From an uncultured Desulfobacterales bacterium (lineage in GTDB: Bacteria; Desulfobacterota; Desulfobacteria; Desulfobacterales; JAHEIW01): DNA of 64,000 nucleotides. This document shows, piece after piece, positions 7,197 to 43,523 of this stretch. The notes beneath the pieces are model-generated. The model had not been told where the DNA came from and searched no databases. It was given only the letters and a program-made list of their open reading frames with translations. The stretch's first letter is position 1. Every line of letters starts with the position of its first letter. Both the position numbers and the translations under genes were made by a program. The stretch covers positions 71,939 to 135,938 of the forward strand of contig CAMYLV010000008.1 in NCBI GenBank assembly GCA_947259495.1. The letters run 5' to 3'.

Positions 7197-8714
7197 TTGA
7201 CAGACCGGAGGTCATCCTTTAAAATTTTAAGTATGGTCATCCACAAATCGAAAGCATTCTGGATTGCCGGCAGCATTTTTACGCTGACGTTTGCCATCCT
7301 TTTCAGCATTCGCCTGGGAATATTAGAACAAATCTTGTCACGCCCGCGCGACCTTTCCCTGGCAACGATCAATGCAGTCTCGGAGCGTGACACCTGGATG
7401 AATATTTTTCAAAATGAGCGTAAAATCGGCTTTTCCCATACTCGCTTTTATGAAGATACAACCGGCTACCGTCTGATCGAAGCCGCACAAATGCGCATTA
7501 ATACCATGGGGATGATTCAGAGTATCAGCCTGAACACCAAAAGCCGGCTTAACCCTGATTTTACGCTTCAGGAGCTTGATTTTGAAATCAGTTCTGGCCG
7601 GTTTCGATTTTCCGTTCAGGGCGTGGTTGACGGAAACACCTTGTTTGTGACAACCGAAAGCGCCGGTTCGAGCCGCAGGCTAAATATTCCGGTTAAAGAT
7701 AAGCTCTACTTGATGAACAGTATCATGGATGCGGTTGCTGCCACCGATTTGCAGACCGGTGACAGATATGCCTTCAAAATTTTCGATCCGACTTCTATGG
7801 GACAGGTTGATGTAATTGTAGCTGTTATCGGTCCGGAACGCATTGATATCAAGGGGGTCCATCAAGCGGCTACCAAAGTTTCTTTAAATGTAAAAGGTGT
7901 ATCCCAGCTGGCTTGGATTGGAAAAGAAGGCGACATCATCAAGGAAAGAGGGCTTCTGGGCATCAGTTTGATAAAAACCGACCGCAAGGACGCCCTCGAC
8001 GGGCTGGCCATTGAAGCGAGCCAGGATCTTACAAAGATTGCCTCGATCGTCGCCAACATCCAGCTTGAAAACGTTGCAGCCCTTAAGGTTTTAAAGGTAA
8101 AAATCGAAGGGCCGCTAATGAAAAACCTGCAACTCCACGGCGGCAGACAAACCTTTAAAGAACAGGTGCTGACGGTTAAAAAAGAGACGCTGTCCAATCT
8201 GGCCCCGGAGCTTAAAATTGAAAATCTGGCGGCTCTTGAAAAAATATTCTTAAAGCCCGGCCCGTTTATTCAATCCGACGACCAGAGAATCCGAGATCTG
8301 GTCCAGGAAATTTTAAAAGACGATCCTGACGCCGACCCGCTAACCAGAGCGCAAAAATTGATGAATTGGGTGAATACCCATATCGAAAAGCGCCCGGTTC
8401 TATCGCTGCCCGATGCTCTTTCGACACTTGAAAACAAAGTCGGTGATTGCAATGAACACGCCGTTTTAATGGCCGCGCTGGCCCGGGCTGCTGGAATTCC
8501 CACCCGCATCGAAGCCGGCCTGGTATATTTAAAGGGTCGCTTCTACTACCATGCCTGGAATCTCATCTACCTCGGCAAGTGGGTCACCGCCGACTCTCTT
8601 TACGGCCAGCTGCCGGCCGACGTCAGCCATCTGCGGTTTGCAACCGGCTCACCGGAAAAGCAGCTGGATATCATGGGTGTCATCGGCAATATCCGTTTAA
8701 CGGTAATAGAATAG
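7197..8714 (+). CDS. transglutaminase-like cysteine protease-fold membrane-anchored protein
   Basis: C-terminal GDCNEHAVLMAALARAAGIPTR...YHAWN (Cys-His core of the transglutaminase-like superfamily) and an N-terminal TM helix. The track start at 7197 is TTG; ATG at 7233 is an alternative. Confidence 0.8.
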   Translation: MTDRRSSFKILSMVIHKSKAFWIAGSIFTLTFAILFSIRLGILEQILSRPRDLSLATINAVSERDTWMNIFQNERKIGFSHTRFYEDTTGYRLIEAAQMRINTMGMIQSISLNTKSRLNPDFTLQELDFEISSGRFRFSVQGVVDGNTLFVTTESAGSSRRLNIPVKDKLYLMNSIMDAVAATDLQTGDRYAFKIFDPTSMGQVDVIVAVIGPERIDIKGVHQAATKVSLNVKGVSQLAWIGKEGDIIKERGLLGISLIKTDRKDALDGLAIEASQDLTKIASIVANIQLENVAALKVLKVKIEGPLMKNLQLHGGRQTFKEQVLTVKKETLSNLAPELKIENLAALEKIFLKPGPFIQSDDQRIRDLVQEILKDDPDADPLTRAQKLMNWVNTHIEKRPVLSLPDALSTLENKVGDCNEHAVLMAALARAAGIPTRIEAGLVYLKGRFYYHAWNLIYLGKWVTADSLYGQLPADVSHLRFATGSPEKQLDIMGVIGNIRLTVIE

Positions 8715-8811
8715 TCGTCATTGTTTTGATTTGTAAACAAAGAACTTAAGGCGGGTTCTAACAAAATATGGTACAATTACGACTATCTTAAAATGCATTA
8801 AAGGTTCATAA

Positions 8812-8916
8812 GTTGAGCCCGTTGCCCGTTAGCCTGTTTGCCGGTTAAAAAATAAAATCAGGCATTTTTGCGATTTCAACGGGCTCAGCCGGCTCAACTG
8901 GCTAAACCGGCCAAAC
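8812..8916 (+). repeat. flavoured-hairpin element copy A (GCCCGTT / AACGGGC arms, gene-less)
   Basis: Left array GTTGAGCCCGTTGCCCGTTAGCCTGTTTGCCGGTT, core AAAAAATAAAATCAGGCATTTTTGCGATTT, right array CAACGGGCTCAGCCGGCTCAACTGGCTAAACCGGCCAAAC. It ends 7 nt before the ABC ATPase ATG. Confidence 0.75.
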
Positions 8917-8923
8917 TTAAAAA

Positions 8924-9670
8924 ATGATTGAATTAAAAGATCTCACAAAAAAATACGGCGATTTTGAAGCGGTCAATGATCTAAACCTATGCGTTAAAAA
9001 AGGAGAGGTTTTCGGATTTATCGGCCCCAACGGTGCCGGCAAGACCACCACCATTAAGATGATGGGCGGAATTTTGGAACCCACCAAAGGCACGGTATTC
9101 ATTGCCGGCATCAACATGCAGGATGCGCCCGAAAAAGCAAAAAGTAAAATTGGCTTTATTCCGGACCGGCCGTATCTTTACGAAAAACTCAGTGGCATGG
9201 AATTTTTAAAATTCACCGCTGATCTTTACGGGGTATCCGAAGATGCGTTTCAGGCAACCGCTTATGAGATCCTTAAGGATTTTTCACTGGCAGACTGGGG
9301 CGACGAGCTGATTGAATCTTATTCCCATGGTATGAAACAACGGCTGATCATGTCGGCCGCCCTATTGCACGATCCGGAGGTGATTATCGTAGATGAACCC
9401 ATGGTGGGGCTTGATCCGGCTGCGATCATAATGGTCAAAGCACTTTTTCGAAAACTTGCTGGCAAGGGTGTTACCGTCTTTATGTCGACGCATACGCTCA
9501 AAGTTGCCCAGGACACCTGCGATCGGATCGGCGTGATTAACAAAGGCCGCTTAATTGCCATTGGAACAACCGAAGAATTGCAACGGGCGGCCAATGTCAG
9601 CGAAACTGACCTCGAGCAGGTGTTTTTAAACCTGACGAACAATAATGAACGAAGTTCTGACCCTATTTAA
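8924..9670 (+). CDS. ABC transporter ATP-binding protein (ABC-2 type)
   Basis: Walker A GPNGAGKTT, signature YSHGMKQRL, Walker B IIIVDEP. Confidence 0.9.
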   Translation: MIELKDLTKKYGDFEAVNDLNLCVKKGEVFGFIGPNGAGKTTTIKMMGGILEPTKGTVFIAGINMQDAPEKAKSKIGFIPDRPYLYEKLSGMEFLKFTADLYGVSEDAFQATAYEILKDFSLADWGDELIESYSHGMKQRLIMSAALLHDPEVIIVDEPMVGLDPAAIIMVKALFRKLAGKGVTVFMSTHTLKVAQDTCDRIGVINKGRLIAIGTTEELQRAANVSETDLEQVFLNLTNNNERSSDPI

Positions 9671-11333
9671 ACCCCGCATCTGGCCGCTCAAGAACCGCGG
9701 TTTGTCAAAGGCTAATGGCAAAGGCGGCGCGCGCCTCATTTTGCTCGGCACATTCGGCCTGCTTTTCTGGTGCGGTATATTCGCCGTCTCCTGGCGGGTT
9801 TTGATTTACTTTAAGGGCATTGAGGATATCGGAGACATTCTGGGCTATAAATTATTGTCCATGATGCTGGTGGTGTCTTTTGCCCTGCTTCTATTCAGCA
9901 ACATCCTCACATCCCTTTCCAAACTCTATCTGTCCCGCGACCTTTTGCTGGTTCATTCGCTGCCGGTTTCCAGTTATAAGATTTTTATCACGCGCTGGGT
10001 CGACAGCACTATTGACAGTGCCTGGATGGTCATCATTTATACCATGCCCGTGCTCATCTCCTATGGCATCGTCTATAAAACCGGCATTTTTTACTATATC
10101 AACACCCTGATTGCGATGTTGTGCCTGGCAGCGATCGCTTCGGCCATCAGCACTCTACTGGTGATGACTGCGGTCATCTTTATCCCCGCCAGCCGAATGA
10201 AAAGTGTCTTTATTCTCATGGGGATTCTTTCTTTTGTGGTCATCTATCTGGCCATCCGCCTTTCACAGCCGGAATTGCTTGTCGACCCGGAAATTTTTGA
10301 CACCGTTATGGTCTATATTACCTCGCTGCAAACGCCGTCATCACCGTTTTTGCCGAGCAGCTGGATATATGACAGTATTCGATCCGCTCTTGCCGGTGCG
10401 ACCAGCAACAGTTTGTTTTTCACGGCGCTGTCTTTGAGTTTTGCCGGGATGATTGCATTTGTCCTGATCTTACTTGCCGATGCGATTTACTTTAAAGGCT
10501 TCTCCAAAACACAGAATGCTCCGGCCCGTTTGTTTAAAAGCAACGTCATCGGCGATCGCCTTTTTAACTTTCTGCCGGGCCCGGTAAGGTCCTTTACGGT
10601 CAAAGAAATAAAGACCTTCCTGCGCGACCAGACCCAGTGGACGCAGATCTTTCTGATTGCCGCCCTGGTGGTGATTTACGTTTATAATTTCAAGGTCCTG
10701 CCCCTTGAAAAATCGCCGATCAAAACCGTGTACCTGCAGAATCTATTCTCATTTCTTAACATGGGACTGGCGTTGTTCGTTTTGACAGCCATAACCGCCC
10801 GATTTGCCTACCCGGCGGTCAGTCTGGAAAGAGAGGCCTTCTGGCTGGTTAAAACCTCCCCGCTATCCATCCGTACGTTTTTATGGATTAAATTTTTCAT
10901 CTATTATCTTCCGCTACTCATCTTGACCGAGGTTCTGATTGCGGCAACCAACATCCTGCTGCAGGTCACGCCGTTTATGATGATCCTTTCAACCCTTACG
11001 GTTTTTTTTGTTGTCCCCGGCATCGTGGCACTGGGCATCGGCCTGGGAGCGGCCTATCCGGATTTTAAAGCCGAAAATCCGACCCAGACCATAACCAGTT
11101 TCGGCGGACTGGTCTTTATGATTGCCTGCGCCGGATACATCGGCCTGGTGGTCCTCATCGAGGCGGGTCCGGTGTACAATCTCTTTATGGCCGGCATCCG
11201 CAATAAATTTATCAGCCTGTCAGCCTGGATATGGATTATCGGCTCCTTTGGCCTGGTATTGGTTCTCAGCCTGCTGGCCATTTTTCTGCCGATGCGCTTT
11301 GGCCGGAGACGCCTGTCCCAATTGCTCATCTGA
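9645..11333 (+). CDS. polytopic membrane protein, putative ABC exporter permease partner
   Basis: 562 aa with many hydrophobic helices. It overlaps the ATPase gene end by 26 nt. Confidence 0.7.
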   Translation: MNEVLTLFKPRIWPLKNRGLSKANGKGGARLILLGTFGLLFWCGIFAVSWRVLIYFKGIEDIGDILGYKLLSMMLVVSFALLLFSNILTSLSKLYLSRDLLLVHSLPVSSYKIFITRWVDSTIDSAWMVIIYTMPVLISYGIVYKTGIFYYINTLIAMLCLAAIASAISTLLVMTAVIFIPASRMKSVFILMGILSFVVIYLAIRLSQPELLVDPEIFDTVMVYITSLQTPSSPFLPSSWIYDSIRSALAGATSNSLFFTALSLSFAGMIAFVLILLADAIYFKGFSKTQNAPARLFKSNVIGDRLFNFLPGPVRSFTVKEIKTFLRDQTQWTQIFLIAALVVIYVYNFKVLPLEKSPIKTVYLQNLFSFLNMGLALFVLTAITARFAYPAVSLEREAFWLVKTSPLSIRTFLWIKFFIYYLPLLILTEVLIAATNILLQVTPFMMILSTLTVFFVVPGIVALGIGLGAAYPDFKAENPTQTITSFGGLVFMIACAGYIGLVVLIEAGPVYNLFMAGIRNKFISLSAWIWIIGSFGLVLVLSLLAIFLPMRFGRRRLSQLLI

Positions 11334-11374
11334 CCCCCTGCAAGCCTGCAAAGTCCCATCTTCAAATTTTCATC

Positions 11375-11403
11375 TTGACAGCCATAATGTATACGTTTAT
11401 ATT
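11375..11403 (+). promoter_or_regulatory. candidate sigma70 promoter for the 4HB-remnant/lexA transcription unit
   Basis: TTGACA (11375-11380), a 17-nt spacer, then TATATT (11398-11403). The spacer contains the near-palindrome AATGTATACGTT. Confidence 0.5.
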
Positions 11404-11422
11404 TACATTAATATTTACATTA
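11399..11422 (+). promoter_or_regulatory. exact tandem 12-mer ATATTTACATTA x2 overlapping the -10/+1 region (possible operator)
   Basis: Read directly: ATATTTACATTAATATTTACATTA immediately at and after the -10 hexamer. Confidence 0.35.
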
Positions 11423-11428
11423 TTCTCT

Positions 11429-11708
11429 GGTTTACCGTTCAAAGGTTCGGGGTTCAAAGATTAAAGACAAATCTGAACCGTTGCTTCGAAGATCCGAGGA
11501 GAAAAGGATGAAAATCGAACAATTTGACGACATTGAAGCCTGGCAATTGACCCGGAAGCTCACTCGCAAGGTCTATGAATTGACAAAAAAGCCCAAATTT
11601 GATCGCGACTTCGGCTTGAAGAGGCAAATTCAGGAGGCCGCCGGTTCATCCATGCACAATATTGCGGTAACCCTGAACGGTGAACCCTGAACCCTTGAAC
11701 CTGAAACC
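11429..11708 (+). repeat. flavoured-hairpin element copy B (GGTTCA / TGAACC arms) carrying an internally deleted four-helix-bundle gene
   Basis: Left array GGTTTACCGTTCAAAGGTTCGGGGTTCAAAG. Right array GTAACCCTGAACGGTGAACCCTGAACCCTTGAACCTGAAACC, whose first 27 nt are identical to the right arm of copy C. Confidence 0.8.
11508..11690 (+). pseudogene. truncated four-helix-bundle protein gene (23S rRNA IVS protein family), N-terminal 53 codons only
   Basis: MKIEQFDDIEAWQLTRKLTRKVYELTKKPKFDRDFGLKRQIQEAAGSSMHNIA, then the frame reads straight into the right repeat arm. By eye there are 15 mismatches over 160 nt versus 13339-13498. The roughly 210 bp present in copy C between ATTGCGG and TAACCC are absent. 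Confidence 0.8.
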
Positions 11709-11724
11709 GACGAAAGGAGGTTTC

Positions 11725-12357
11725 ATGAAAGTCCCGCTGACAGCCAAACAGCAGCGTGTTCTGGATTATCTTCAGCGCGAAATCGCCAAAACCGGTCTGT
11801 GCCCCAGCCTGCGCCAGGCTGCAGCGAATCTGGGGGTCAGCCATGCCGCTATCGCCCAGATCCTTCGTGTGCTGGAAGAAAAAGGCTATGTTAAGCGCGA
11901 GGGGCGTTACAGCCGCAACGTTTATTTGTTAAATCGCACGCGCCAGGCAGCGGCTTTGCAGCGCTGGCGCGAAATCCCGATTATCGGTCGTGTCACGGCC
12001 GGTCTACCGATGTACGCCCAGACGGAGTGGGACGGCAGCATCGTGCTGGATGCCGCCGTTTATCGCAGTCAAAACATCTTCGCCCTGCGCGTCAAGGGCG
12101 ATTCGATGAGAGATGCCGGCATCCTCAACGGCGACCTGGCGATCTGCGAACCGCGTCAGTACGCCCAAAATGGGGAAATCGTCGTGGTTCTCATTAACAG
12201 TGAAGAGGCCACTGTCAAACGCTTCTTTTTACGTGACGACCACATCGAGCTGCGTCCGGAAAATACCGACTACGCCCCCATGCGTTACGGCTTCGGCGAA
12301 GTGCTGGTTCAGGGCAAGATCATCGGCATCCACCGCGGCCCGGAAGAAATAAATTGA
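11725..12357 (+). CDS. lexA: LexA repressor (S24 peptidase)
   Basis: wHTH N-terminus (LTAKQQRVLDYLQREIAKTGLCPSLRQAA), catalytic GDSM and VKRF Lys motif. AAAGGAGG SD 5 nt upstream of the ATG at 11725. The track ORF start at 11680 lies inside the repeat arm. Confidence 0.9.
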   Translation: MKVPLTAKQQRVLDYLQREIAKTGLCPSLRQAAANLGVSHAAIAQILRVLEEKGYVKREGRYSRNVYLLNRTRQAAALQRWREIPIIGRVTAGLPMYAQTEWDGSIVLDAAVYRSQNIFALRVKGDSMRDAGILNGDLAICEPRQYAQNGEIVVVLINSEEATVKRFFLRDDHIELRPENTDYAPMRYGFGEVLVQGKIIGIHRGPEEIN

Positions 12358-12468
12358 GCACGCTGCGCATTTGAGGAGCGGTCCTCGGAACCTTTAGGAA
12401 CGCTCCTTCAGCCGGGCATGATGGCATTGCGCAAGCGTTAGCAGCATCCCTTGGCGTAGAAAACGAAA

Positions 12469-13293
12469 ATGCAAACCGAGCAAACAAAAAGCCCCTGCCG
12501 CCTGTGGGTCGGCACCAGCGGTTATTCGTATACAGAGTGGGTCAACGCCGGGTTTTACCCGCCGGGCACCCGATCGGGCCAGATGCTGCCGCTTTACGCC
12601 CGAACCTTTCCGATCACCGAACTGAACTTCACCTGGTATCAGATGCCGAAAGCCGCTGCCATCGAACGCATGCGCCGGCAGGCACCGCCCGGTTTTCGTT
12701 TTGCCGCCAAACTGACCCGCACCTTAACCCATGAGGTGGACCCCGACCAATGGCGGGGGCAGGCCTCTCAATACCGCGACGGCATGGCACCGCTGGTCCA
12801 GGCCCGGCAGCTGACAGCTGTTTTGCTGCAGTTTCCGCCGAGCTTTTCCCGGGCGCCGCAAAATCGCCGCTACCTGGCCGCCCTTCTGGACGAACTGGCC
12901 GGATTGCCCCTGGCGGTGGAATTTCGCCATGCCTCATGGGCCGCGGACCGGGTTTTTGCCGAACTGGAGCGCCGCCGCACCACCTTGGTGGCCGTGGATG
13001 AACCGGCTTTACCGGGCCTGTTTCCGCGACTCGATTTGGTCACCAATCCGGAGCTTTTCTATATTCGGTTTCACGGCCGCAACGCCAGAGGCTGGCGCTC
13101 GGGCAATATGCAAATGCAGTTCGACTACGACTACCGTGATGAAGAGCTGCGGGAATGGGCTGATAAAATCATCACACCGATGACCCGACAGGCCGGCAGC
13201 GGGACAATTTTTTTCAACAACCACGTCCGCGGCCAGGCACCCAAAAATGCCCGGCGTTTGATCAGCCAGTTAATTGAAGGAGGTCTTCTCTAG
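12469..13293 (+). CDS. DUF72 (YecE-like) family protein
   Basis: WVGTSGYSYTEWVNAGFYPPG N-terminus, FRFAAKL, AVLLQFPPSF and AVEFRHASW are typical DUF72 blocks. Confidence 0.85.
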   Translation: MQTEQTKSPCRLWVGTSGYSYTEWVNAGFYPPGTRSGQMLPLYARTFPITELNFTWYQMPKAAAIERMRRQAPPGFRFAAKLTRTLTHEVDPDQWRGQASQYRDGMAPLVQARQLTAVLLQFPPSFSRAPQNRRYLAALLDELAGLPLAVEFRHASWAADRVFAELERRRTTLVAVDEPALPGLFPRLDLVTNPELFYIRFHGRNARGWRSGNMQMQFDYDYRDEELREWADKIITPMTRQAGSGTIFFNNHVRGQAPKNARRLISQLIEGGLL

Positions 13294-13745
13294 GTTCAGA
13301 GGTTCCGGGTTCTGGGTTCAAAGGTTCTGAGGAAAAAAATGAAAATCGAACGATTTGAAGACATTGAGGCCTGGCAATTGGCCCGGGAGTTAACACGCAA
13401 GGTCTATGAATTGACAAAAAAGCCCCGGTTTGCGGGCGACTTCGGCTTGAAGAGACAAATTCAGGAGGCCGCCGGTTCATCCATGCACAATATTGCGGAA
13501 GGATTCGATTCGGAGACAAACCCGGAATTTATTCGTTTTCTTCGATATGCCAAGCGGTCTTGCACTGAAGTCCAGAGTGAGCTTTACGTGGCACTGGATC
13601 AGCAATACATAACAACTCAAGAGTTTCAGAATGTGTACGACCATGCCGGGCGTACCCGTGCTGCCATTCGAGGTTTCATTAAGTACTTGCTAGCTTATGA
13701 GCAAGGTAACCCTGAACGGTGAACCCTGAACCTATGAACCCTTAT
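13293..13745 (+). repeat. flavoured-hairpin element copy C (GGTTCA / TGAACC arms) with an intact four-helix-bundle gene; the reference full-length copy
   Basis: Left array GGTTCAGAGGTTCCGGGTTCTGGGTTCAAAGGTTCTGAGG (13293-13332). Right array GTAACCCTGAACGGTGAACCCTGAACCTATGAACCC (13706 onward). Together they bracket ORF 13339-13722. Confidence 0.85.
13339..13722 (+). CDS. four-helix-bundle protein (23S rRNA intervening-sequence protein family, PF05635/TIGR02436-like; Avd-like fold)
   Basis: 127 aa with FEDIEAWQLARELTRKVYELT...GLKRQIQEAAGSSMHNIAEGF...EFIRFLRYAKRSCTEVQSELYVALDQQYIT, the hallmark pattern of this family. Confidence 0.85.
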   Translation: MKIERFEDIEAWQLARELTRKVYELTKKPRFAGDFGLKRQIQEAAGSSMHNIAEGFDSETNPEFIRFLRYAKRSCTEVQSELYVALDQQYITTQEFQNVYDHAGRTRAAIRGFIKYLLAYEQGNPER

Positions 13746-14915
13746 AACCGTTCAATTATCCATTTAAACGTGGCTGATTTTGCCGTGGCGGTGGAAAGGG
13801 CGGTGGATCACCGGCTGCACGAACGTCCGGTGATCATCGCACCCGAAGGCGCCGTACGCGCCGCCGTTTATGACATGAGCAACGAGGCCTATATAACCGG
13901 CATCCGCAAGGGCATGGCCCTGCAGCGAGCCGTTCGCCTGTGTCAAGATGTCCGCATCCTGCCGCCCCACCCCCACCGCTACGAACAGGCCATGCGCGAT
14001 GTGCTCAAGCGCGCCCTGCCGTATTCACCCCTGATCGAAACCGGTGAAGACGACGGCCACCTGTTTATGGATGCCACCGGCACCGGCCGCCTTTTCGGGC
14101 CGCCCAGGGATGTGGCCTGGCGGTTGCGCCGGCAGATCAAAACCGACCTGGGCCTGGACCCGATCTGGTCGGTGGCACCCAACAAATTGGTGGCCAAAGT
14201 GGCCACCCGCCTGGTGAAACCCGATGGAGCGTACATCGTCTCGGCCGGCGAAGAAAGATCGCTGCTGGCCCCGCTGCCTGTCCGCCTGGTTCCAGGCATC
14301 GAGCGCGATGACCTGCTTCGGTTGCGGGAATTCAATTTGACGCATGCATTTCAGGTCGCGGCCCTGAGCCTGGAGCAGTTGGCGGTCCCTTTTGCCACCC
14401 GTGCCCGGCTGCTTTACGAGGCGGTGCGCGGCATCGATCCGTCTCCGGTTTTGCCGGTCGGGCAGAAACCGCCGCAGGTGATCGCCGATCACGAATTCGG
14501 CATCGACACCAACGATGTGCACACCCTGGAGAGCGTTCTCTACGGGCTGGTGGAGCAGGTTGGCAGCCGGCTGCGCCGACGCCGGCGAGTTGCCCGCCGC
14601 ATTGCCATTGTGCTCGACTATTCCGACGGCATGCGCCGCGCCCGCCAGGTGGCCGCCCGGCCGGCCACGGCCAATGACCTCACCCTCTTTGAACTGGCCC
14701 GGCGCGCACTGCAACTGGCCTGGATGCGGCGGGTGCGTATCCGCCACCTGCGCCTGATCGGCGCCCGGCTGGTCTTTCCGCCGGCCCAGTTAGAACTGTT
14801 TGCCGCCGATCAGAAAGCCGATGAAAAGCGATCCAGCCTGATCGGCGCCATCGACACCGTGCGCCACCGCTTCGGCCATGAGGCCTTGCGGTTCGGCCGC
14901 ACTTTAGCGGCCTAA
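13719..14915 (+). CDS. imuB: ImuB-like Y-family DNA polymerase homologue (catalytically inactive type)
   Basis: IIHLNVADFAVAVE aligns with the DinB motif IIHVDMDCFFAAVE, but both Asp residues are replaced. The SLDE position reads DDGH. Both candidate ATGs (13719, 13734) lie inside the right arm of element C, and the gene sits upstream of dnaE2. Confidence 0.8.
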   Translation: MNPEPMNPYNRSIIHLNVADFAVAVERAVDHRLHERPVIIAPEGAVRAAVYDMSNEAYITGIRKGMALQRAVRLCQDVRILPPHPHRYEQAMRDVLKRALPYSPLIETGEDDGHLFMDATGTGRLFGPPRDVAWRLRRQIKTDLGLDPIWSVAPNKLVAKVATRLVKPDGAYIVSAGEERSLLAPLPVRLVPGIERDDLLRLREFNLTHAFQVAALSLEQLAVPFATRARLLYEAVRGIDPSPVLPVGQKPPQVIADHEFGIDTNDVHTLESVLYGLVEQVGSRLRRRRRVARRIAIVLDYSDGMRRARQVAARPATANDLTLFELARRALQLAWMRRVRIRHLRLIGARLVFPPAQLELFAADQKADEKRSSLIGAIDTVRHRFGHEALRFGRTLAA

Positions 14916-14916
14916 C

Positions 14917-15212
14917 TGCCGGTTTGCCCGTTGCCGGTTTAGCCCGTTGGCCGGTTGATAATTGAACGAATAACCATCAGAACAAACTGTTGAACAAACG
15001 AATTTATTCGATTTTTAACATATTCGCGACGCTCTTGTTCTGAGGTACAAAATTGCCTGTATATTGCTTTGGACCAGAAGGACATCTCCCCAGAAGCGTT
15101 TCAAAGTACTTATGACCACTGTGCAAGGATCAGGAAAATAATTGATGGCCTAATCCGTTACTTGAAAAACCATCAACCCGGCTAACGGGCCAACGGGCTC
15201 AACCGGCTCAAC
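14917..15212 (+). repeat. flavoured-hairpin element copy D (GCCSGTT / AACSGGC arms) with a 5'-truncated four-helix-bundle gene fragment
   Basis: Left array CTGCCGGTTTGCCCGTTGCCGGTTTAGCCCGTTGGCCGGTTG starts 2 nt after the imuB stop. Right array CAACCCGGCTAACGGGCCAACGGGCTCAACCGGCTCAAC ends 6 nt before the dnaE2 ATG. Confidence 0.8.
14997..15185 (+). pseudogene. four-helix-bundle protein gene fragment (C-terminal half only)
   Basis: Hand translation NEFIRFLTYSRRSCSEVQNCLYIALDQKDISPEAFQSTYDHCARIRKIIDGLIRYLKNHQPG* aligns with residues ~62-124 of the 13339-13722 protein (roughly 60% identical by eye). An in-frame TGA lies just upstream and there is no start codon. Confidence 0.75.
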
Positions 15213-15218
15213 TTTGTT

Positions 15219-18200
15219 ATGATCCCATTAACCGTCCGATCCAACTACTCTTTCATGTGGGGCACAGCTTCGGTCAAACAGGTCTGCCGGGCAGCCCGAC
15301 GTCTGGGCTATACGCACCTGGCGCTGACCGACACCGACAACCTGTGCGGCCTGTGGCCCTTTTTAACCAGCTGTCGGCGCGAAGGACTGACACCCATTGT
15401 GGGGGCGGAGATCACCGACCCGCAGCGCAAGCAGCGGGCCGTCTGCCTAGTGGCCAATGATTCCGGCTACCGCAACCTCTGCCGCCTGTTGACCCGCCGC
15501 CACATGGACGATGATTTTAGTTTGGCGGCCGCTGTAAGCGCCCATGCAAATGGATTGGTGGTCCTTACCCAGAGCGCGGGCCTGCTCAGCGCCTGGCATG
15601 CTGACGGCGTTGCAGTTGCCGGCGCCCTGCCGCGTCGTCCTTTGCCCGCCACCCACCGACTGCGCCACACGGCCCGCCGCCTGGGCGTGTCGGTGGTAGC
15701 CACGCCAGGCAGTTTCTTTTTGCGTCCCGCAGACATGGCGGTGCATCGCATTTTGCGCGCCATCGCGCACAACACATCCCTGTCACGCCTGGCAGCCGAC
15801 GAAGTTGCCCCGGTAGATGCATGGCTGGCAGGCCCTCAAGAATATGAACGCCGCTTTGCCATCTGCCCGGAGGCAATCAGCGTCACTTACAAAATAGCCG
15901 AACGTCTGGATTTTAGCGGCCCGCAATTTGGCATTGTCATGCCGCCGCTGCTCGGTCAAAACGGCAGCAACCCGGCCGAGCGCCTGCGCGAGCAAGCTTA
16001 TGAAGGTGCGCGGCAGCGCTACGGCGATGAGCTTTCCGAGGCCGTGGTGGAGCGGCTGGAACACGAATTGCGCAGCATCACAGACATGGGATTTGCCGCA
16101 TATTTTTTAATCGTGCGCGGCATCATCCAGCGCAGCCCGCGCACCTGCGGCCGCGGCTCGGGCGCCGCTTCGCTGGTGGCTTACTGCCTGGGCATTACCA
16201 ATGTCTGTCCCCTGAAGCACAATTTGTATTTTGAGCGGTTCTTAAACCCGGGCCGCCAAGATCCGCCCGACATCGATGTGGATTTTGCCTGGGATGAACG
16301 CGATGCGGTCCTGGATTCGGTCCTGACCCAGTATCCGGGTCACGCCGCTATGGTGTCCAGCCACGTGCTGTTTCAACCGCGCATGGCGGTGCGCGAAGTG
16401 GCCAAGGTCTTCGGGCTGACCGATGCCGAAATCGGCCGGGTGTCCAAGCGGCTGCCCCAATTCTGGCGCGTGAAAGAATCCGACCCTCGATTTTTGGACG
16501 AACTACAGCAGCGTCCCGAATCCAAAGCGCTGGCGTTTCCCCCGCCCTGGCCCGACATTTTGCAGTTTGCCCAGCGCCTGATCGGCACCCCGCGCTATAT
16601 GTCGGTGCACCCCGGCGGCGTGGTGATCACGCCGCGGCCTATTGAAGAATACGTCCCTGTCGAGCGCGCCCCCAAAGGCGTGCCGATTATCCAGTGGGAA
16701 AAGGATGCCACCGAAGATGCCGGGCTGGTCAAAATTGATTTGCTGGGCAACCGCAGCCTGGGGGTCATTCGTGACGCCCTGGTCAACCTGCGCGACAACG
16801 GCACCGCCTTCGACGAGCTGCGCTGGGAACCCGAAGACGACTTTGCCACCCAGGAGGCTCTGGCCCAGGGTCGCACCATGGGCTGTTTTTATATCGAAAG
16901 CCCGGCCATGCGCCTGCTGCAGCAAAAGTCCAAAGTGGGCGATTTCGAACACCTGGTCATTCACAGCAGCATTATCCGCCCGGCTGCCAACGAATTTATC
17001 CAGGAATACATCCGCCGGCTGCACGGCGGCCGCTGGGACCCGATTCATCCTTTTTTGGCCGAAGTGCTCGCTGAAACCTTCGGCATCATGGTTTATCAGG
17101 AAGATGTCTCCCGCGCGGCAGTGGTTATCGCTGGCTTTTCGCATGCCGAAGCCGATACGCTGCGCAAAGTGCTGACCAAAAAGGATCGCGCGCATCAGCT
17201 GCGGGATTTTGAGCAACGCTTTTACACCGGCGCACGGCAGCACGGCGTATCCGCTGACAAAACCGCTGAAATCTGGGATATGATGATGAGCTTTAACGGC
17301 TATTCCTTCTGCAAACCCCACAGTGCTTCTTATGCCCGGGTATCCTTTCAGGCCGCCTATCTCAAGGTCCATTATCCGGCCGAATTTATGGCTGCGGTGA
17401 TCAGCAACCAGGGCGGCTTTTACGGCACCTTTGCCTACGTGTCCGAGGCCCGGCGCATGGGTCTGAAGGTGCTGCCGCCCAATGTCAGCTTAAGTGAGGT
17501 TCACTGGACCGGCGGGGCCGATACCATCCGGGTGGGGCTGCTGTCCGTCAAGGGCCTGGGCATCGACACCCGGGCGCGCATCGTTGCGCAGCGTCGCCGC
17601 CGGTCCTACGGTAGTCTGCGGGATTTTTTGGACCGCGTGCGCCCCGCGGAAGACGAGGCCCGCTCATTGATCAACTGCGGCGCCCTGGATGCCTTCAACT
17701 CCGGCGGCAACCGCGCAGCGCTGCGGTGGGAACTGGCCGGCTGGTTGAAATCAAAACGGCCGAAAGTGCCCAACCCCGCCCTGTTTGATGGTGCCAACCC
17801 TGGCGCCGATTGCCCGCCGCCGGCACTGCCCGCCGAAGATGAACGCGAACGACGGCGGCGTGAGTTTACGGTGCTGGACTTTCTGTGCGATCGTCACCCC
17901 ATGGAGCTGTTTGCCGGACAGTTGCAAAAACGACGCACCGTTAAAGCCGTGGACCTGCCGTGCTTTGTCGGCCGGCGGGTCACTCTGGCCGGCTGGCTGA
18001 TTACCGGCAAGGTGGTTTCCACCAAAAAGGGCGATCCCATGGAGTTTTTAACCTTTGAAGATGAAACCGGTATTGTAGAGACTACCTTTTTCCCGCAAGC
18101 CTACCGCCGTTTTTGCCACATCATCGATCGCCAGCGGCCCTATCTGCTTACCGGCAGGGTCGAAGCGGACTGGGGCGCGCTGACCCTTACAGTCGAAAAG

Positions 18201-18224
18201 GCCGAACAGTTGAAGTCCAGCTAA
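15219..18224 (+). CDS. dnaE2: error-prone DNA polymerase III alpha homologue DnaE2 (ImuC)
   Basis: 1001 aa with an N-terminal PHP domain (LTVRSNYSFMWGTAS), a pol III alpha core (PDIDVDF, GYSFCKPHSASYA) and a C-terminal OB fold. It follows imuB. Confidence 0.9.
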   Translation: MIPLTVRSNYSFMWGTASVKQVCRAARRLGYTHLALTDTDNLCGLWPFLTSCRREGLTPIVGAEITDPQRKQRAVCLVANDSGYRNLCRLLTRRHMDDDFSLAAAVSAHANGLVVLTQSAGLLSAWHADGVAVAGALPRRPLPATHRLRHTARRLGVSVVATPGSFFLRPADMAVHRILRAIAHNTSLSRLAADEVAPVDAWLAGPQEYERRFAICPEAISVTYKIAERLDFSGPQFGIVMPPLLGQNGSNPAERLREQAYEGARQRYGDELSEAVVERLEHELRSITDMGFAAYFLIVRGIIQRSPRTCGRGSGAASLVAYCLGITNVCPLKHNLYFERFLNPGRQDPPDIDVDFAWDERDAVLDSVLTQYPGHAAMVSSHVLFQPRMAVREVAKVFGLTDAEIGRVSKRLPQFWRVKESDPRFLDELQQRPESKALAFPPPWPDILQFAQRLIGTPRYMSVHPGGVVITPRPIEEYVPVERAPKGVPIIQWEKDATEDAGLVKIDLLGNRSLGVIRDALVNLRDNGTAFDELRWEPEDDFATQEALAQGRTMGCFYIESPAMRLLQQKSKVGDFEHLVIHSSIIRPAANEFIQEYIRRLHGGRWDPIHPFLAEVLAETFGIMVYQEDVSRAAVVIAGFSHAEADTLRKVLTKKDRAHQLRDFEQRFYTGARQHGVSADKTAEIWDMMMSFNGYSFCKPHSASYARVSFQAAYLKVHYPAEFMAAVISNQGGFYGTFAYVSEARRMGLKVLPPNVSLSEVHWTGGADTIRVGLLSVKGLGIDTRARIVAQRRRRSYGSLRDFLDRVRPAEDEARSLINCGALDAFNSGGNRAALRWELAGWLKSKRPKVPNPALFDGANPGADCPPPALPAEDERERRRREFTVLDFLCDRHPMELFAGQLQKRRTVKAVDLPCFVGRRVTLAGWLITGKVVSTKKGDPMEFLTFEDETGIVETTFFPQAYRRFCHIIDRQRPYLLTGRVEADWGALTLTVEKAEQLKSS

Positions 18225-18257
18225 GTTTTTAGCACCAGCGGGGTATTACCAGCGAAT

Positions 18258-19664
18258 TCATTCCAGCCCCAGAGTTGATCGGGCACTCATCTTTTGAGGA
18301 GCCACTGACAATTCGCCGGCACCTGATCTGTCAGCAGCAAATCCAACTGTCCAAACCTTCACCTTGCCGCTGGTAGTGGAATAGGTTTGAAAGCGCAGAT
18401 CGCCGGTTTCTGTAAGGTAAGAGTAGTCAAAATTCGTAGAATGTATACCCAGGGTCTCAACATAATAGGACCGCCAGCTGACGCCATTGTTAAAACTGCG
18501 GTGCAGTTTATTATGTCCGTCGACTGCCGTTAGGGTGCCATTTGCATCTGTCAGGATTCTTGCGGGAATAGACTCAAAAGGCAGTTTTAGGGGTGCAGAC
18601 CAACCGATCTCGGGTCGCCACAATGACCACCATGAGGTATCGTTGCTGTTATCGGCGAAAGACACCGTCGGATGCCCGTCTGCGGTAGCCCCAACATAAC
18701 TGGTGTACCAGAGGTTGCCGGCGCTGCCCGTCCAGTCGGGCCCAACGACGACATCTGCGTTTTTAAGGGTGATCGGCAATGTTTCGTAAAGAGATCCATC
18801 TGCACGTTTAAAGGTGTCTCCACCGTCATCCGATAACGCATAAAGTACGTGGGTATGATAGCCCGATGAACCATTCCCGTCATCCACCACCCAGGTGATG
18901 TGCATCCGGTTGTTGCGGTCAAAAAAGATGCGCTGTCGATACGGCTGATAGGCTGTACCGTCGGCCCCGGAGTCATTCCAAAAAAAAGTTTTGGCCGCAT
19001 GCGCGTAATCCGTACCGCCCAGCATCACCCAGGTTTTAGCGTCGGCATCGTATCGCGCAATGGCTGCGGCAATGATGCCGGGAGACCAGCCGGTACCGAA
19101 TTTTATCCGGTGACGAAAAGCAACGTAAAGAACGCCGTTCAGGTCCCGGGCAAATGAAGGATAGGTGATCCAGTTTCCCGGGATTGTCCGCGCTTGCTCA
19201 CCGCCAACAAACGTAAAAGAAGAGATATCTTCCGGTTTATCGGAAACGACATATTGCCAGGCATATTCATAGTAGGGGTTGCCTGTTTTGGGATGATTAA
19301 ATGGGGAATGATACATATTGCCGGCAACATGAATATACCCGCTGCGGTCTATACCCACAGACGCGCCATTATACCAGGGCGCAGGGTCGGTTTCTTCAAA
19401 AATAACGTTTTTAGATGTCGACCCGTCGGATGACTTCTTGACGATGAGCGTCTTTAATTGCCGGGTCACATATACGTAATAAATGGCATCGTTGTAAGTA
19501 GCCACCGGGGTTTGCCAATCACTGCCGGTTACTTTGGAAGCATCATTGAATTCGAATTCTTTTTTAATGGTGACGGTTTCCGGTGACTGTTGCCCCCATG
19601 CCGTCATTGCATATATGCATAGAGCCACCGGAACCGCCACCAAAGCGGGGTAAAATCGCCGCAT
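18258..19664 (-). CDS. secreted BNR-repeat-like (BNR_4-type) beta-propeller protein
   Basis: ALSDDGGDTF and SFNNGVSW Asp-box-like motifs. Signal peptide starts at the internal MRRFYPALVAVPVALCIYAMTAWG (ATG 19664); the track ORF extends to 19757. Confidence 0.65.
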   Translation of the reverse strand: MRRFYPALVAVPVALCIYAMTAWGQQSPETVTIKKEFEFNDASKVTGSDWQTPVATYNDAIYYVYVTRQLKTLIVKKSSDGSTSKNVIFEETDPAPWYNGASVGIDRSGYIHVAGNMYHSPFNHPKTGNPYYEYAWQYVVSDKPEDISSFTFVGGEQARTIPGNWITYPSFARDLNGVLYVAFRHRIKFGTGWSPGIIAAAIARYDADAKTWVMLGGTDYAHAAKTFFWNDSGADGTAYQPYRQRIFFDRNNRMHITWVVDDGNGSSGYHTHVLYALSDDGGDTFKRADGSLYETLPITLKNADVVVGPDWTGSAGNLWYTSYVGATADGHPTVSFADNSNDTSWWSLWRPEIGWSAPLKLPFESIPARILTDANGTLTAVDGHNKLHRSFNNGVSWRSYYVETLGIHSTNFDYSYLTETGDLRFQTYSTTSGKVKVWTVGFAADRSGAGELSVAPQKMSARSTLGLE

Positions 19665-37167: not shown

Positions 37168-37302
37168 GGTTCAAAGGTTCAGCGTTCAAAGGTTGTGAGG
37201 TTAGATTACAGACGACAGCTGTCAGAGATAAAATGAAACCGGACCGAATCACTGACGCTGAGCCCCAGAACTCCTGAACCTTGAACCTCTTAACCCTTAA
37301 CC
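37168..37302 (+). repeat. flavoured-hairpin element copy E (GGTTCA / TGAACC arms, gene-less)
   Basis: Left GGTTCAAAGGTTCAGCGTTCAAAGGTTGTGAGGTT. Core ...CAGAGATAAAATGAAACCGGACCG.... Right GAACTCCTGAACCTTGAACCTCTTAACCCTTAACC. Confidence 0.8.
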
Positions 37303-40280: not shown

Positions 40281-40588
40281 GCTACTGGCCACTGGCCACT
40301 GGCGGTCGCAAGGAACTGCCCTACGCTCCGGTTTCATCTGTCATCAGTCTTCTGTGATCTAACCTCTGAACCTGCAAAACCACTCAAAGCCCTGCCAGAT
40401 TAGGCCGGAAAACGACAACTCAGTGCCCCAGGAAGACAACTCAGGCCGCAGGGCAGAAAGCAATCGTCTGTGTAAGTTGCATACCATTATTGAGCACCCG
40501 GCAGGGCGTATCGACAAGCTAACGGCCAACAGCCAGTAACCCGTAGCCAGGTTCAAGACGCCTGTAGCGAGAAGCCGGTAGCCAGTAA
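40281..40588. repeat. composite repeat region G (ACTGGCC / GCCAGT arms enclosing an inverted GGTTCA-type half element)
   Basis: Left GCTACTGGCCACTGGCCACTGGCGG. Right ...CAGCCAGTAACCCGTAGCCAGG...GCCGGTAGCCAGTAAA. The reverse complement of 40326-40376 (GGTTCAGAGGTTAGATCACAGAAGACTGATGACAGATGAAACCGGAGCG) parallels the core of copy E. Confidence 0.65.
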
Positions 40589-43148: not shown

Positions 43149-43523
43149 ATGTTTGAACTAAAAGTCGTAACGCGTTTTGCAGCTGCTCATCAGCTGACGA
43201 TGGTTGGATCAAAATGTGAAAATATGCACGGTCACAACTGGAAAGTCGAGGTCTATGTCACTGGAGAAAAGCTTGGTGCCGGCGGCGTGCTGGTGGATTT
43301 TGGGGCGATCAAGGCCCATCTGGCCGATGTAATCAAAAAATTGGATCACAAATTTTTAAACGAGCTCGATTATATCCCTGACGGAAAACCGTCATCGGAA
43401 AACATCGCCTATTTTGTGGCCACAGAGCTGCAGACCAAAATCGACGATTCAGCAGTCCAAGTTAGCCGGGTCACGGCCTGGGAATCCGACGACGCATGTG
43501 CAACTTATATCGTAAAAAGATGA
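43149..43523 (+). CDS. queD: 6-carboxy-5,6,7,8-tetrahydropterin synthase
   Basis: FAAAHQL...HGHNWKVEV and ESDDACATY, the PTPS/QueD pattern. ATG 43149. Confidence 0.8.
   Translation: MFELKVVTRFAAAHQLTMVGSKCENMHGHNWKVEVYVTGEKLGAGGVLVDFGAIKAHLADVIKKLDHKFLNELDYIPDGKPSSENIAYFVATELQTKIDDSAVQVSRVTAWESDDACATYIVKR

Follow-up and report, generated by a model that had tools for sequence, protein, structure and literature searches.

The lexA leader and the cassette copies

The window (the whole 64,000-nt stretch of DNA that was analysed) carries an SOS mutagenesis operon in the order lexA-DUF72-imuB-dnaE2. Hairpins are found at all three intergenic sites of this operon, both here and in the related locus L001 (related loci and contigs carry L numbers). 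Copy B, the subject of this work, lies in the lexA 5' leader, as the original prediction had it, 3' of a sigma-70-like promoter and 5' of the lexA ribosome-binding site (Table 1). The promoter region (11334-11428) is identical in L083, with 0/95 differences, and the promoter is kept in L001. The tandem 12-mer at the −10 box may be an operator, and TTTACAT repeats stand at the matching place in L001. GTTC repeats were also considered as a LexA box, which in alphaproteobacteria is the direct repeat GTTC-N7-GTTC; this candidate was dropped, since 3-4 nt between the cores does not fit that spacing.

The first bases of the left arm of B resemble a degenerate GTAACCGTTCA terminus. At the other end, the lexA Shine-Dalgarno sequence AAGGAGG (11714-11720) follows directly 3' of the right arm, and the remnant ORF stops 35 nt 5' of the lexA ATG. 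The outer helix is predicted to pair 11428-11460 with 11672-11709 (MFE −85.2 kcal/mol, z about −3.0 to −3.2); both arms, described at the outset as preserved, survive and still pair in the predicted fold.

Table 1. Positions of the promoter, genes, cassette parts and hairpins in the window.
Feature	Position	Strand	Basis or remark
Gene-less hairpin, D-type units, immediately 5' of ABC-transporter start codon	8811..8913	+	fold/repeat units
Sigma-70-like lexA promoter, TTGACA-17-TATATT	11375..11403	+	11/12 matches; predicted, strong
Tandem 12-mer ATATTTACATTA x2 over −10 box and likely transcription start	11399..11422	+	repeat
Left arm of B, GGTTTACCGTTCAAAGGTTCGGGGTTCAAAG, (G)GTTCNN units	11428..11460	+	fold, repeat units
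Cassette leader of B with Shine-Dalgarno GAGGAG (11496-11501) and ~31-nt segment that C lacks	11461..11507	+	alignment
Remnant ORF of B	11508..11690	+	60 codons + stop
Deletion junction, GG common to both flanks of 208-nt deletion	11666..11667	+	alignment to C
Right arm of B, TAACCCTGAACGGTGAACCCTGAACCCTTGAACCTGAAACC	11668..11709	+	unit number varies among strains
lexA (LexA_DNA_bind + Peptidase_S24)	11725..12357	+	Pfam domains
Copy C, intact reference cassette	13293..13747	+	left arm 13293-13332, ORF 13339-13722 (127 aa), right arm 13707-13747
Copy D, second decayed cassette	14916..15215	+	C-terminal half of gene only (15000-15185)
Gene-less hairpin, GGTTCA-type arms, between two co-oriented genes	37168..37295	+	no detectable ORF remnant
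Gene-less hairpin, D-type units, end 18 nt before next start codon	57792..57898	+	fold/repeat units

The ATG (13734) of the downstream Y-family polymerase (imuB-like) gene lies inside the right arm of copy C. The four-helix-bundle gene of copy D is 54% identical, and the arm units of D, CCGGTT/GCCCGTT facing AACGGGC/AACCGG, are unlike those of C. Leader or ORF remnants were sought inside 37168-37295, in the 5' interior of D and in the loop 8849-8878, and none rose above shuffled controls; the proposal that D retains the first ORF codons was withdrawn on the same ground. An Rfam scan of 8500-18500 at E<=1 gave no match, rRNA included.

The protein of copy C was assigned to PF05635 with 99.7 bits (cut-off 33.8; profile 1-104 of 106) and to TIGR02436 with 94.7 bits (cut-off 24). 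Copies B and D matched PF05635 partially, B with 38.4 bits over profile 2-47 only and D with 39.1 bits over 57-105. These profiles describe S23p, the 23S-rRNA-intervening-sequence protein family, with an Avd-like fold as judged from the model: the AlphaFold prediction for C (pLDDT 91.2) has four helices, and its best structural matches are 2GSC (TM 0.83-0.92), 2RLD and Avd 4DWL/8UB7. Intact family relatives are spread across many phyla and are flanked by inverted arrays of 7-8-nt units. Most homologues stand on very short contigs. The best 120 of 5788 matches in a protein search were all full length, so a distribution of breakpoints could not be derived from this survey.

Termini, target duplications and arms of the cassettes

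Young relatives carry the termini GTAAC/GTAAGCG/GTAGGCG, for example GTAAGCGTTCAC, GTAGGCGTTCAC, GTAACCGTTCAC and GTAACTACTCAGG. Complete genomes with young copies include CP070673.1 and OY820905.2. Searching for target duplications from RNAduplex arm boundaries gave a weak signal, the boundaries being over-extended into the flanks, and a combined repeat-plus-terminus test was used. A terminal repeat together with a target duplication was found at 13/68 loci vs 4/663 (0.6%) mismatched locus pairs. The duplications were exact over 8 bp at L005, L020, L022, L031 and L047, and matched at 7/8 positions at L018, L032, L033 and L048. An inverted repeat starting GTAAGCG and an 8-bp direct repeat are the hallmark of IS66 (PMC11946415; also PMC12888890), and the GTAAC/GTAAGCG termini with 8-bp duplications in the relatives suggest an IS66-like mobile cassette that lacks a transposase.

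Beside extra termini in the fetched loci, no transposase was present and ordinary genes (OmpA-like, STAS-domain protein) were found; no IS66-type transposase with matching ends occurred in the fetched flanks, and a viral-contig scan for the terminus GTAASCGTTCACNGGTTCA gave 0 matches. Orthologous sites in L001, L093, L095 and L097 are all occupied, sometimes by other hairpins. The one clean presence/absence polymorphism, with the 8-bp repeat GGAACGCT, concerns a different 99-nt sequence and not the cassette. Around B, C and D, no target duplication was detectable; as for termini, B shows no more than a degenerate GTTTACCGTTCA at its left and C shows TATGAACCCTTAT at its right. Since B has no recognisable duplication and its terminus is degenerate, its mode of insertion has to be read from its relatives.

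The cassette is oriented with its upstream neighbour at 54/58 loci and with its downstream neighbour at 51/61, and in 7/9 cases young insertions lie 4-51 nt 5' of the next start codon. Arm units track the gene lineage, being GGTTCA in the C type, CCGGTT/GCCCGTT in the D type, GGGAAAA in Nostoc and GGTTYAA in Riemerella. On the sense strand, arm mismatches comprised 63 G.U vs 81 A.C (p = 0.16) and were mostly transversions, and unit numbers are often unequal between the two arms of a cassette. With no G.U excess, predominant transversions and unequal arms, selection on an RNA helix is not claimed, and the arms could be arrays of protein-binding repeats. A conserved motif in the inner right arm was also sought by fuzzy matching, which was rejected as non-discriminating because any GAACC array matches.

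Internal deletion in copy B

The original prediction interpreted copy B as a gene-bearing cassette with an internal deletion. Alignment with copy C upheld this core, with four points in need of qualification: the GG at the junction, the descent of B, the 27-nt identity with C and the origin of gene-less hairpins. Colinear blocks were obtained on both sides of the junction (blastn, 175 nt at 89%, E 5e-62, and 36 nt at 94%, E 2e-10), and the global alignment contains one large gap only. The 15 differences counted in the first 160 nt of the ORF proved exact (15/160 mismatches, ungapped, B 11508-11667 vs C 13339-13498), and all of them fall within the first 117 nt. The junction, ATTGCGG joined to TAACCC, was found as described: B reads CACAATATTGCGG followed directly by TAACCCTGAAC, where copy C has ATTGCGG AAGGATTC at the first site and GAGCAAGG TAACCC at the second. 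The loss, estimated beforehand at about 210 bp, is a deletion of exactly 208 nt (C 13499-13706, or equally 13497-13704, given the 2-nt GG ambiguity in placement); 208 is no multiple of 3, which shifts the frame in B.

The 27 nt noted as matching the start of the C right arm lie in B 11666-11693 (GGTAACCCTGAACGGTGAACCCTGAACC, 28 nt with the shared GG), which is identical to C 13705-13732. L001 and L003 have this right-arm segment unchanged, so it is subfamily-wide and not specific to C. Present-day C is not the parent of B, since a leader segment of ~31 nt (ATTAAAGACAAATCTGAACCGTTGCTTCGAAG) in B is gone from C and kept in the C orthologues L001, L093 and L095; many of the 15 B/C differences are changes specific to C. 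Judging from these alignments, a full-length cassette of the C subfamily evidently stood between the lexA promoter and its ribosome-binding site, and a single internal deletion of 208 nt brought the right arm, from its first base on, up against codon 53.

A different origin for the same arrangement would be recombination or gene conversion in which the 5' part of a gene-bearing cassette was joined, at the lexA leader, to another copy's arm or to a gene-less hairpin already present. We regard this as rather unlikely, although it would account for the crowding of all 15 differences into the first 117 nt, with 71 nt around the junction identical between B and C; the probability of such a mismatch distribution is ~6e-4, calculated post hoc. 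Replacement of whole hairpins between near-identical strains and the unrelated hairpin at the leader site of L001 also fit. However, the identical stretch is present in L001 as well, and the right-arm segment also in L003, so these are features shared by the subfamily rather than products of recent exchange with C. The two arms of B are moreover a matched subfamily pair that folds together, and neither a donor nor an intermediate was found.

The GG dinucleotide, proposed as microhomology, is present at the junction, and its use as such presupposes an ancestor with GCGG at that point. As a mechanistic clue it was not sustained, since a 2-nt overlap is expected at ~15-16% of random junctions (chance P ~0.16) and is thus uninformative on mechanism. 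In eukaryotes, interrupted gap repair yields internally deleted non-autonomous transposons, as in Ac/Ds and P elements. If the same had happened here after excision, it would have left a MITE-like derivative capable of spreading. Such an event would suit the terminal inverted repeats and target duplications of the family, the survival of both ends of B around a junction with a short microhomology, and the recurrence of internal deletions in relatives. It is nevertheless improbable, as the metagenome and protein searches gave the B junction at one locus only, the termini of B are degenerate and the mobilising enzyme, with its transposition chemistry, is putative.

Decay of the remnant ORF

Codons 1-53 of the remnant (11508-11666) are homologous to helices 1-2 of the four-helix-bundle protein, and the final 7 codons (VTLNGEP, then stop) are right arm read out of frame. 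The deletion took away helices 3-4, and with them Glu54, a conserved residue of the S-x3-N-x2-E motif, so that in place of a complete four-helix bundle, with a fold like that of XCC0516 (2GSC) and BT_0352 (2RLD), residues 1-53 are left.

Against its orthologue, the remnant shows 7/159 differences, 1 synonymous and 6 nonsynonymous, whereas the neighbouring ABC gene shows 22/1689, 18 synonymous and 4 nonsynonymous (Fisher p = 0.0026). Strong purifying selection acts on the intact copies, in which most residues are >90% conserved and synonymous sites are saturated. In the B remnant no purifying selection was seen and the rate is about neutral; the substitutions L18R, Y23C and H50Y hit positions that are invariant or nearly so in the family. 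Since the deletion, the remnant has drifted at the neutral rate, while the arms remain and are predicted to pair. On this coding evidence, copy B is a pseudogene, the fixed and non-functional relic of a cassette.

Co-option would give B a present use: selection would keep either its truncated ORF, as an upstream ORF or a two-helix peptide of 60 aa, or a structured leader that tunes lexA expression. The strong GAGGAG (11496-11501) is kept, the stop lies 35 nt before the lexA ATG, the element is fixed in several strains, and the SOS operon bears hairpins at all three intergenic sites here and in L001. We give this reading a low probability, because the coding part is neutral, with changes at invariant or near-invariant positions (L18R, Y23C, H50Y), and because the unit number of the arms varies freely among strains. 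At the leader site of L001, an entirely different hairpin takes the place of B; if anything is selected, it is therefore the presence of some hairpin and not the B sequence.

The junction in other metagenomes and deletions in relatives

Other copies were checked for the same junction, and it was found in about 13 independent metagenome contigs, each time at the lexA locus only: L081 (SRR33225353), L082-L091 (ten ERR137692xx runs) and L096/L097 (two JGI metagenomes). These contigs come from three sample sets and have unique flanks on both sides (ABC gene, promoter and lexA). The junction is also present in a lineage that is 3.4% divergent within the element. Its recurrence at one locus in independent assemblies shows it to be a single old fixed event and not an assembly artefact, and the deletion is older than the split of several of the sampled strains. 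Neither the metagenome scan nor the protein look-ups gave the B junction at another genomic site, so nothing suggests that the deleted form has moved by transposition. Collapse or chimeric assembly of repeated cassettes is a negligible prospect. Such repeats do break assemblies, and the L081 contig stops within B as well as within C, but one and the same junction between unique flanks in 13 or more separately assembled contigs, the 3.4%-divergent lineage among them, refutes it for practical purposes.

Independent deletion junctions were also looked for, and three were found, two at the site orthologous to C and one in a gatC-gatA spacer. In L093/L094, at the C orthologous site, an internal deletion with kept arms joins CACAAT to TTTGAACCCTGAACC; in L092, between gatC and gatA, the arms are again kept and the junction joins GAGACAAACCC to TGAACCCTGAACC. 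These independent, arm-sparing deletions in relatives indicate that decay of the gene within kept arms is recurrent. On an unrelated contig, L095, a second rearrangement breaks at the same codon as B, which hints at a possible breakpoint hotspot, beyond simple random deletion. With the junctions of L093 and L092, these two breaks hint at clustering around codons 51-62.

The proposal that B illustrates how gene-less hairpins arise from gene-bearing copies is made plausible by the independent deletions in relatives, but the gene-less hairpin interiors searched in this window hold no significant remnant of leader or ORF. The hairpin at 8811-8913 is swapped for an unrelated one in L097, where the flanks are 99% identical; a whole-hairpin swap between strains with such similar flanks means that turnover or replacement also occurs.

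Proposed history and significance

Taking the in-situ deletion of 208 nt, the IS66-like mobility and the arm-processed leader together as one account, we consider it quite probable that B (11428-11709) is the fixed relic of a small mobile cassette. The family would move as DNA, to go by the relatives, and its cassettes, having no transposase of their own, would depend on one supplied in trans, in the manner of a 'mobile insertion cassette'. They would insert just 5' of start codons in sense orientation and be transcribed by read-through, again as the relatives indicate. In the mRNA, the arm hairpin could then serve as an RNase III substrate, by analogy with rRNA intervening sequences.

The deletion in B itself, with moderate confidence, would be ordinary illegitimate recombination, for example slippage during replication or the joining of ends that overlap by 2 nt. 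At a similar level of confidence, only arm-sparing deletions would persist, because the host transcription unit has taken in the arms: the right arm of B borders directly on the lexA ribosome-binding site, and the imuB-like start lies inside the right arm of C. On the same analogy, B would now be at most a processed or structured 5' leader of lexA.

Taken alone, copy B adds a further decayed member to a gene family already known and has little wider weight. The lexA leader and the SOS-operon spacers are nevertheless partly built of cassette remains, and the imuB-like gene takes its start codon from a cassette arm. To our knowledge, the origin and mobility of rRNA intervening sequences (IVSs) and the function of the S23p/four-helix-bundle protein have been open questions since the early 1990s. 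A broader reading, which we offer only tentatively, is that the cassettes are cross-phylum DNA transposons without a transposase, with IS66-type ends and 8-bp duplications, whose arms let the insertion be cut from, or tolerated in, any transcript. The rRNA IVSs would then be the subset resident in rRNA, B would be a stage of a general decay series that leads to the bare hairpin, and the very highly conserved Avd-like protein would have the arms as its target, in RNA or DNA form. If true, tolerated or excisable arms would explain survival in operon spacers, 5' leaders and 23S rRNA helices, and a protein acting on the arms would explain why the unit sequence tracks the protein lineage. The young relatives, with intact termini and 8-bp duplications, predict a trans-acting IS66-type transposase, RNase III-processed arms and binding of the protein to the arm repeats.

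Comparison with known systems

The Correia/NEMIS elements of Neisseria and the ERIC-type repeats are short intergenic inverted-repeat elements that are co-transcribed, forming RNA hairpins which RNase III can cleave and which alter mRNA stability. They are non-coding, occur in narrow taxa and have other termini and duplications (TA for Correia), whereas the full cassette described here carries a gene and spans many phyla. In REPtrons, a RAYT gene encoding a Y1 transposase lies between inverted REPs, and gene-less REP/BIME hairpins are found intergenically, with no target duplications. The cassettes are similar in having a small gene within inverted short repeats that are also dispersed as gene-less hairpins, and in a repeat that varies with the gene lineage. 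They differ in the gene, which encodes no Y1 transposase and is not known to have any catalytic function, and in the target duplications seen in relatives.

Mobile insertion cassettes and MITEs with IS66-type ends share with the relatives the terminal inverted repeats, the 8-bp duplications and the absence of an internal transposase; in both, there are many copies per genome and internally deleted forms keep both ends. Unlike IS66-type elements, the cassette ends are followed by variable arrays of 7-8-nt units, undescribed in PMC11946415/PMC12888890, and the cassettes carry just one passenger, a four-helix-bundle gene conserved to an extreme degree.

The model of the cassette protein resembles Avd of diversity-generating retroelements in its four-helix-bundle fold (TM ~0.7-0.8 to 4DWL and 8UB7), but sequence identity is just 9-12%. 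Beside the cassettes, no reverse transcriptase and no template/variable repeats came to notice in passing. Avd and the four-helix-bundle protein have been placed in one CDD family (PMC10053308).

The rRNA IVSs with an S23p ORF, known from Leptospira, Coxiella burnetii, Brucella and Xanthomonas, have the same protein family and an ORF in sense to the host transcript; it was within 23S rRNA genes that this kind of cassette was first noticed. Complementary borders forming a stable stem around a sense ORF, by which IVSs are recognised, were found here too (predicted folds; 54/58 co-oriented with the upstream gene). In contrast, IVSs lie in a 23S (or 16S) rRNA gene, typically at helix 9, 25 or 45, while B is in the lexA leader and C and D are in operon spacers; the fetched relatives (80, with 68 full-length loci checked) have protein-coding neighbours or lie in 5' leaders, and none is in rRNA. 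Moreover, the terminal repeats and 8-bp duplications of the relatives are unreported for IVSs in the literature searched, in which only PMC4990558 was found to connect S23p/four-helix-bundle genes with heptamer arrays, MITEs or target duplications. [quoted passage not shown]

Structure of the copy B deletion

Copy B was aligned to copy C, the intact reference cassette in which a four-helix-bundle gene lies between two inverted arrays (arms) of 7-8-nt units, within the region 11000-14200. The global alignment contained one large gap, and blastn gave two colinear blocks with E values of 5e-62 and 2e-10. To the left, B 11508-11667 and C 13339-13498 align over 160 ungapped positions with exactly 15 mismatches, the number given in the original prediction; to the right, B 11666-11693, which contains the 27-mer described as shared (GTAACCC...GAACC), is identical to C 13705-13732. 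The junction reads ...CACAATATTGCGG|TAACCCTGAAC... in B, as against ATTGCGG-AAGG (left) and GCAAGG-TAACCC (right) in C, and the missing segment, put at about 210 bp, measures 208 nt (C 13499-13706; the shared GG leaves its position ambiguous by 2 nt). This loss shifts the frame, and the B ORF therefore terminates as VTLNGEP* within the right arm. The observation on copy B was thus confirmed as written.

The reading placed on it was largely right, except that the GG is uninformative and B relates to present-day C only indirectly. GG is present at the junction, but a 2-nt microhomology is expected at 15.6% of random junctions (analytical), and simulated deletions within C gave 15.2%, so that it has no mechanistic weight; slippage and end joining would both fit, but it is evidence for neither. 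The 27-nt identity is real but not specific to C, the right-arm segment being identical also in L003 and in L001, a related Desulfobacterales MAG. The closest ORF paralogue of B is C (89%), followed by the L001 orthologue of C (85%). Since a leader segment of about 31 nt is kept in B, L001 and two further relative loci (L093, L095) and is absent from C, and many of the 15 differences are C-specific changes, B belongs to the same local subfamily as C but does not descend from present-day C, which has itself undergone a small deletion (the leader segment).

The deletion is real DNA, old enough to be common to lineages 3.4% divergent within the element, because the junction and its neighbours recur. 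Contig L081 (Logan), which encodes the exact LexA protein, begins inside B and has the same junction. P0002, a 58-aa product (89% identical), is encoded on ten contigs, each from a different sequencing run; all have this junction, with the ABC-transporter gene upstream and lexA downstream on those contigs that reach it. Two further metagenome contigs cover the same locus at 99% identity. The metagenome contig scan and protein look-ups revealed the B junction at no other genomic site. The number of right-arm units of B differs among the window, L081 (+8 nt) and relatives L083 and L097, and the arms are slippage-prone tandem arrays.

Coordinates of the features in the window and in relative loci
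Feature	Location	Description
Near-consensus promoter	window 11375-11403	25 nt upstream of B left arm
TTTACAT-containing direct repeats	window 11399-11422; L001 1003-1045	ATATTTACATTA x2, overlapping lexA -10 box
Copy B	window 11428-11709	lexA leader
Copy C	window 13293-13747	ORF 13339-13722
imuB-like start codons	window 13707-13747; L093 340-375	GTG 13719, ATG 13734 (CCT ATG AAC CCT TAT...)
Copy D	window 14916-15215	CCGGTT/GCCCGTT arms; remnant 15000-15182
Gene-less hairpins	window 8811-8913, 57792-57898	CCGGTT/GCCCGTT arms
Gene-less hairpin	window 37168-37295	
Gene-less hairpin	window 43510-43616	GACAGNN arms
Tandem heptamer	window 40284-40372	(ACTGGCC)x3 beside lone TAACCTCTGAACC
Replaced hairpin	window 8781-8922; L097 3672-3809	L097 units CACAGAG/CTCTGTG
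Spacer length difference	window 12400; L097 7276-7382	107 extra nt in L097, between 8-bp direct repeats GGAACGCT
lexA-leader hairpin	L001 1040-1335	CACAGAC/GTCTGTG
imuB-dnaE2 spacer hairpin	L001 4640-4780	CGAAA-type
Truncated cassette	L092 1440-1760	between gatC and gatA
Break at orthologous C site	L095 230-260	ATATTGCAG|TATCTTATTC
Nostoc plasmid pNsp_c cassette	L098 1440-1915	GGGAAAA...TTTTCCC arrays
Riemerella anatipestifer cassette	L099 1410-1980	GGTTYAA...TTRAACC arrays

Protein family and fate of the remnant

The match of the C product to Pfam PF05635 (23S_rRNA_IVP) spans the profile from one end to the other, and TIGR02436 ('four helix bundle protein') is matched as well, while the match is confined to the first half of the PF05635 profile for B and to the second half for the D remnant. 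The AlphaFold model of C has four helices (pLDDT 91). Its structural matches are XCC0516 (2GSC, TM 0.83-0.92), 2RLD (BT_0352, 'S23 ribosomal protein family') and, at a greater distance, the DGR protein Avd. Residues 1-53 (helices 1 and 2) are kept in B, and the conserved Glu54 is lost.

Across 68 intact relatives, most positions are >90% conserved in amino acid and synonymous sites are saturated; the intact family is under strong purifying selection. The B remnant differs from its L083 orthologue at 7 of 159 nt (4.4%), 1 change being synonymous and 6 nonsynonymous, the latter affecting invariant or nearly invariant family positions (L18R, Y23C, H50Y). For the adjacent ABC gene, divergence between the window and L083 is 1.3%, with 18 synonymous and 4 nonsynonymous changes (Fisher p = 0.0026 for the two splits). 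Since the remnant changes at roughly the rate seen at synonymous sites of this neighbour, copy B is a pseudogene, and an ordinary one of a known family.

Recurrent gene decay and gene-less hairpins

The search for independent deletion junctions in relatives gave three cases. In L093/L094 the deletion lies at the orthologous C site, between DUF72 and the Y-family polymerase; there the gene stops after ...GTGCACAAT and runs straight into right-arm TTTGAACCCTGAACC. In L092 the gene sequence extends to ...GAGACAAACCC and is followed directly by TGAACCCTGAACC, the junction falling at a gene-internal motif that is arm-like (AAACCC|TGAACC); the gene-internal AAACCCGGAA is similar to an arm unit, hence a longer microhomology than at B. 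The third case, L095, departs from the gene at the breakpoint codon of B, after NIA, and continues into unrelated AT-rich DNA (TATCTT...) on a contig of 537 nt, which may reflect a hotspot for breakage, an insertion, a rearrangement or a chimeric assembly. In addition, nearly every D-type relative has an N-terminal truncation or an internal deletion: all 46 found in the protein database have ≤106 aa, most being visibly truncated. The deletions in L093/L094 and L092, together with these truncated relatives, show that gene decay inside retained arms is recurrent, much as the S23p ORF of the rRNA intervening sequence (IVS) of Coxiella undergoes 'reductive evolution' (PMC4990558).

The proposal that gene-less hairpins arise by deletion is supported by this decay in relatives, but no significant gene remnant was found inside the gene-less hairpins of the window. 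Moreover, in place of the entire hairpin in the 5' UTR of the ABC-transporter gene, L097 has an unrelated one of similar length, with flanks 99% identical and boundaries exactly after the -10-like TACAATTA and before the start codon. All three spacers of the SOS operon are occupied in both the window genome and L001, by different elements. Because of this replacement, the other unit types in L001 and the lack of remnants in the window hairpins, in-situ decay is not the sole route to a bare hairpin. The extra length of the lexA-DUF72 spacer in L097 was either inserted there, with an 8-bp duplication, or lost from the window strain by deletion between 8-bp repeats.

Nearly all of the 80 best-matching relatives of C carry (GGTTCAN)n upstream and (NTGAACC)n downstream, and a second arm family (CCGGTT/GCCCGTT units) accompanies the 54%-identical protein lineage of copy D. 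The same architecture surrounds annotated 'four helix bundle protein' genes in more distant relatives from cultured organisms, the Nostoc and Riemerella plasmid members. The inverted-array architecture is general for the family, with unit sequence tracking protein lineage.

Arms in the host operon

The element was indeed left in the lexA 5' leader: with the promoter upstream and the lexA Shine-Dalgarno directly adjoining the right arm, B is part of the transcript, as a structured leader of 282 nt (MFE -85 kcal/mol, z about -3). RNase III excises IVSs at the arm stem (PMC4990558), and it may cleave the B arms by analogy, leaving a short lexA leader. A test of wobble pairs in the arms detected no selection at the RNA level, and the region 8500-18500 had no Rfam match; the arms may be protein-binding arrays instead of an RNA stem. 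The conserved TTTACAT repeats may represent the LexA operator of this lineage.

At copy C, the sole possible starts of the Y-family (imuB-like) gene lie inside the right arm, as in L093. Therefore, cassette C supplies the first codons of the host gene and the arms are indispensable to the host operon, a simple reason why the observed deletions spare them.

The cassettes as proposed mobile elements

Scanning one genome per species recovered 522 relatives of C, of which the best 80, from sources including megabase contigs, have 64-93% protein identity to C and belong to Desulfobacterota, Nitrospirota, Verrucomicrobiota, Acidobacteriota, Chloroflexota, Planctomycetota, Cloacimonadota, Thermotogota and other phyla. 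The cassette gene has the same orientation as its upstream neighbour in 54/58 cases and as its downstream neighbour in 51/61. An exact direct repeat directly outside the 12-nt terminal inverted repeat was found at 13/68 loci, compared with 4/663 mismatched locus pairs; by eye, these are 8-bp duplications, as in L022 (CATTTATT|GTAACCGTTCAC...GTGAACGCTTAC|CATTTATT) and L031 (AAAGATAA|GTAACTACTCAGG...CCTGAATAGTTAC|AAAGATAA). Termini GTAAC.../GTAAGCG... with exact or 7/8 8-bp target duplications occur at L005, L018, L020, L022, L031, L032, L033, L047 and L048, and the next start codon lies 4-51 nt downstream of young copies in 7/9 cases. B, C and D have degenerate termini only, with no target duplication detected.

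An earlier survey reported such genes wedged between cas genes (PMC3936711), and no description of four-helix-bundle genes as mobile cassettes with such ends was found in the literature. From the ends and duplications of the relatives, the family is regarded as transposase-less mobile cassettes, and this signature in the relatives of B is the part that merits further work. No IS66-type enzyme was found in the limited flanks of the fetched loci. Ends beginning GTAAGCG and 8-bp duplications are the hallmark of the IS66 family (PMC11946415; example PMC12888890); since the cassette relatives show both, the mobilising enzyme is probably IS66-type, although the cassettes are without a transposase.
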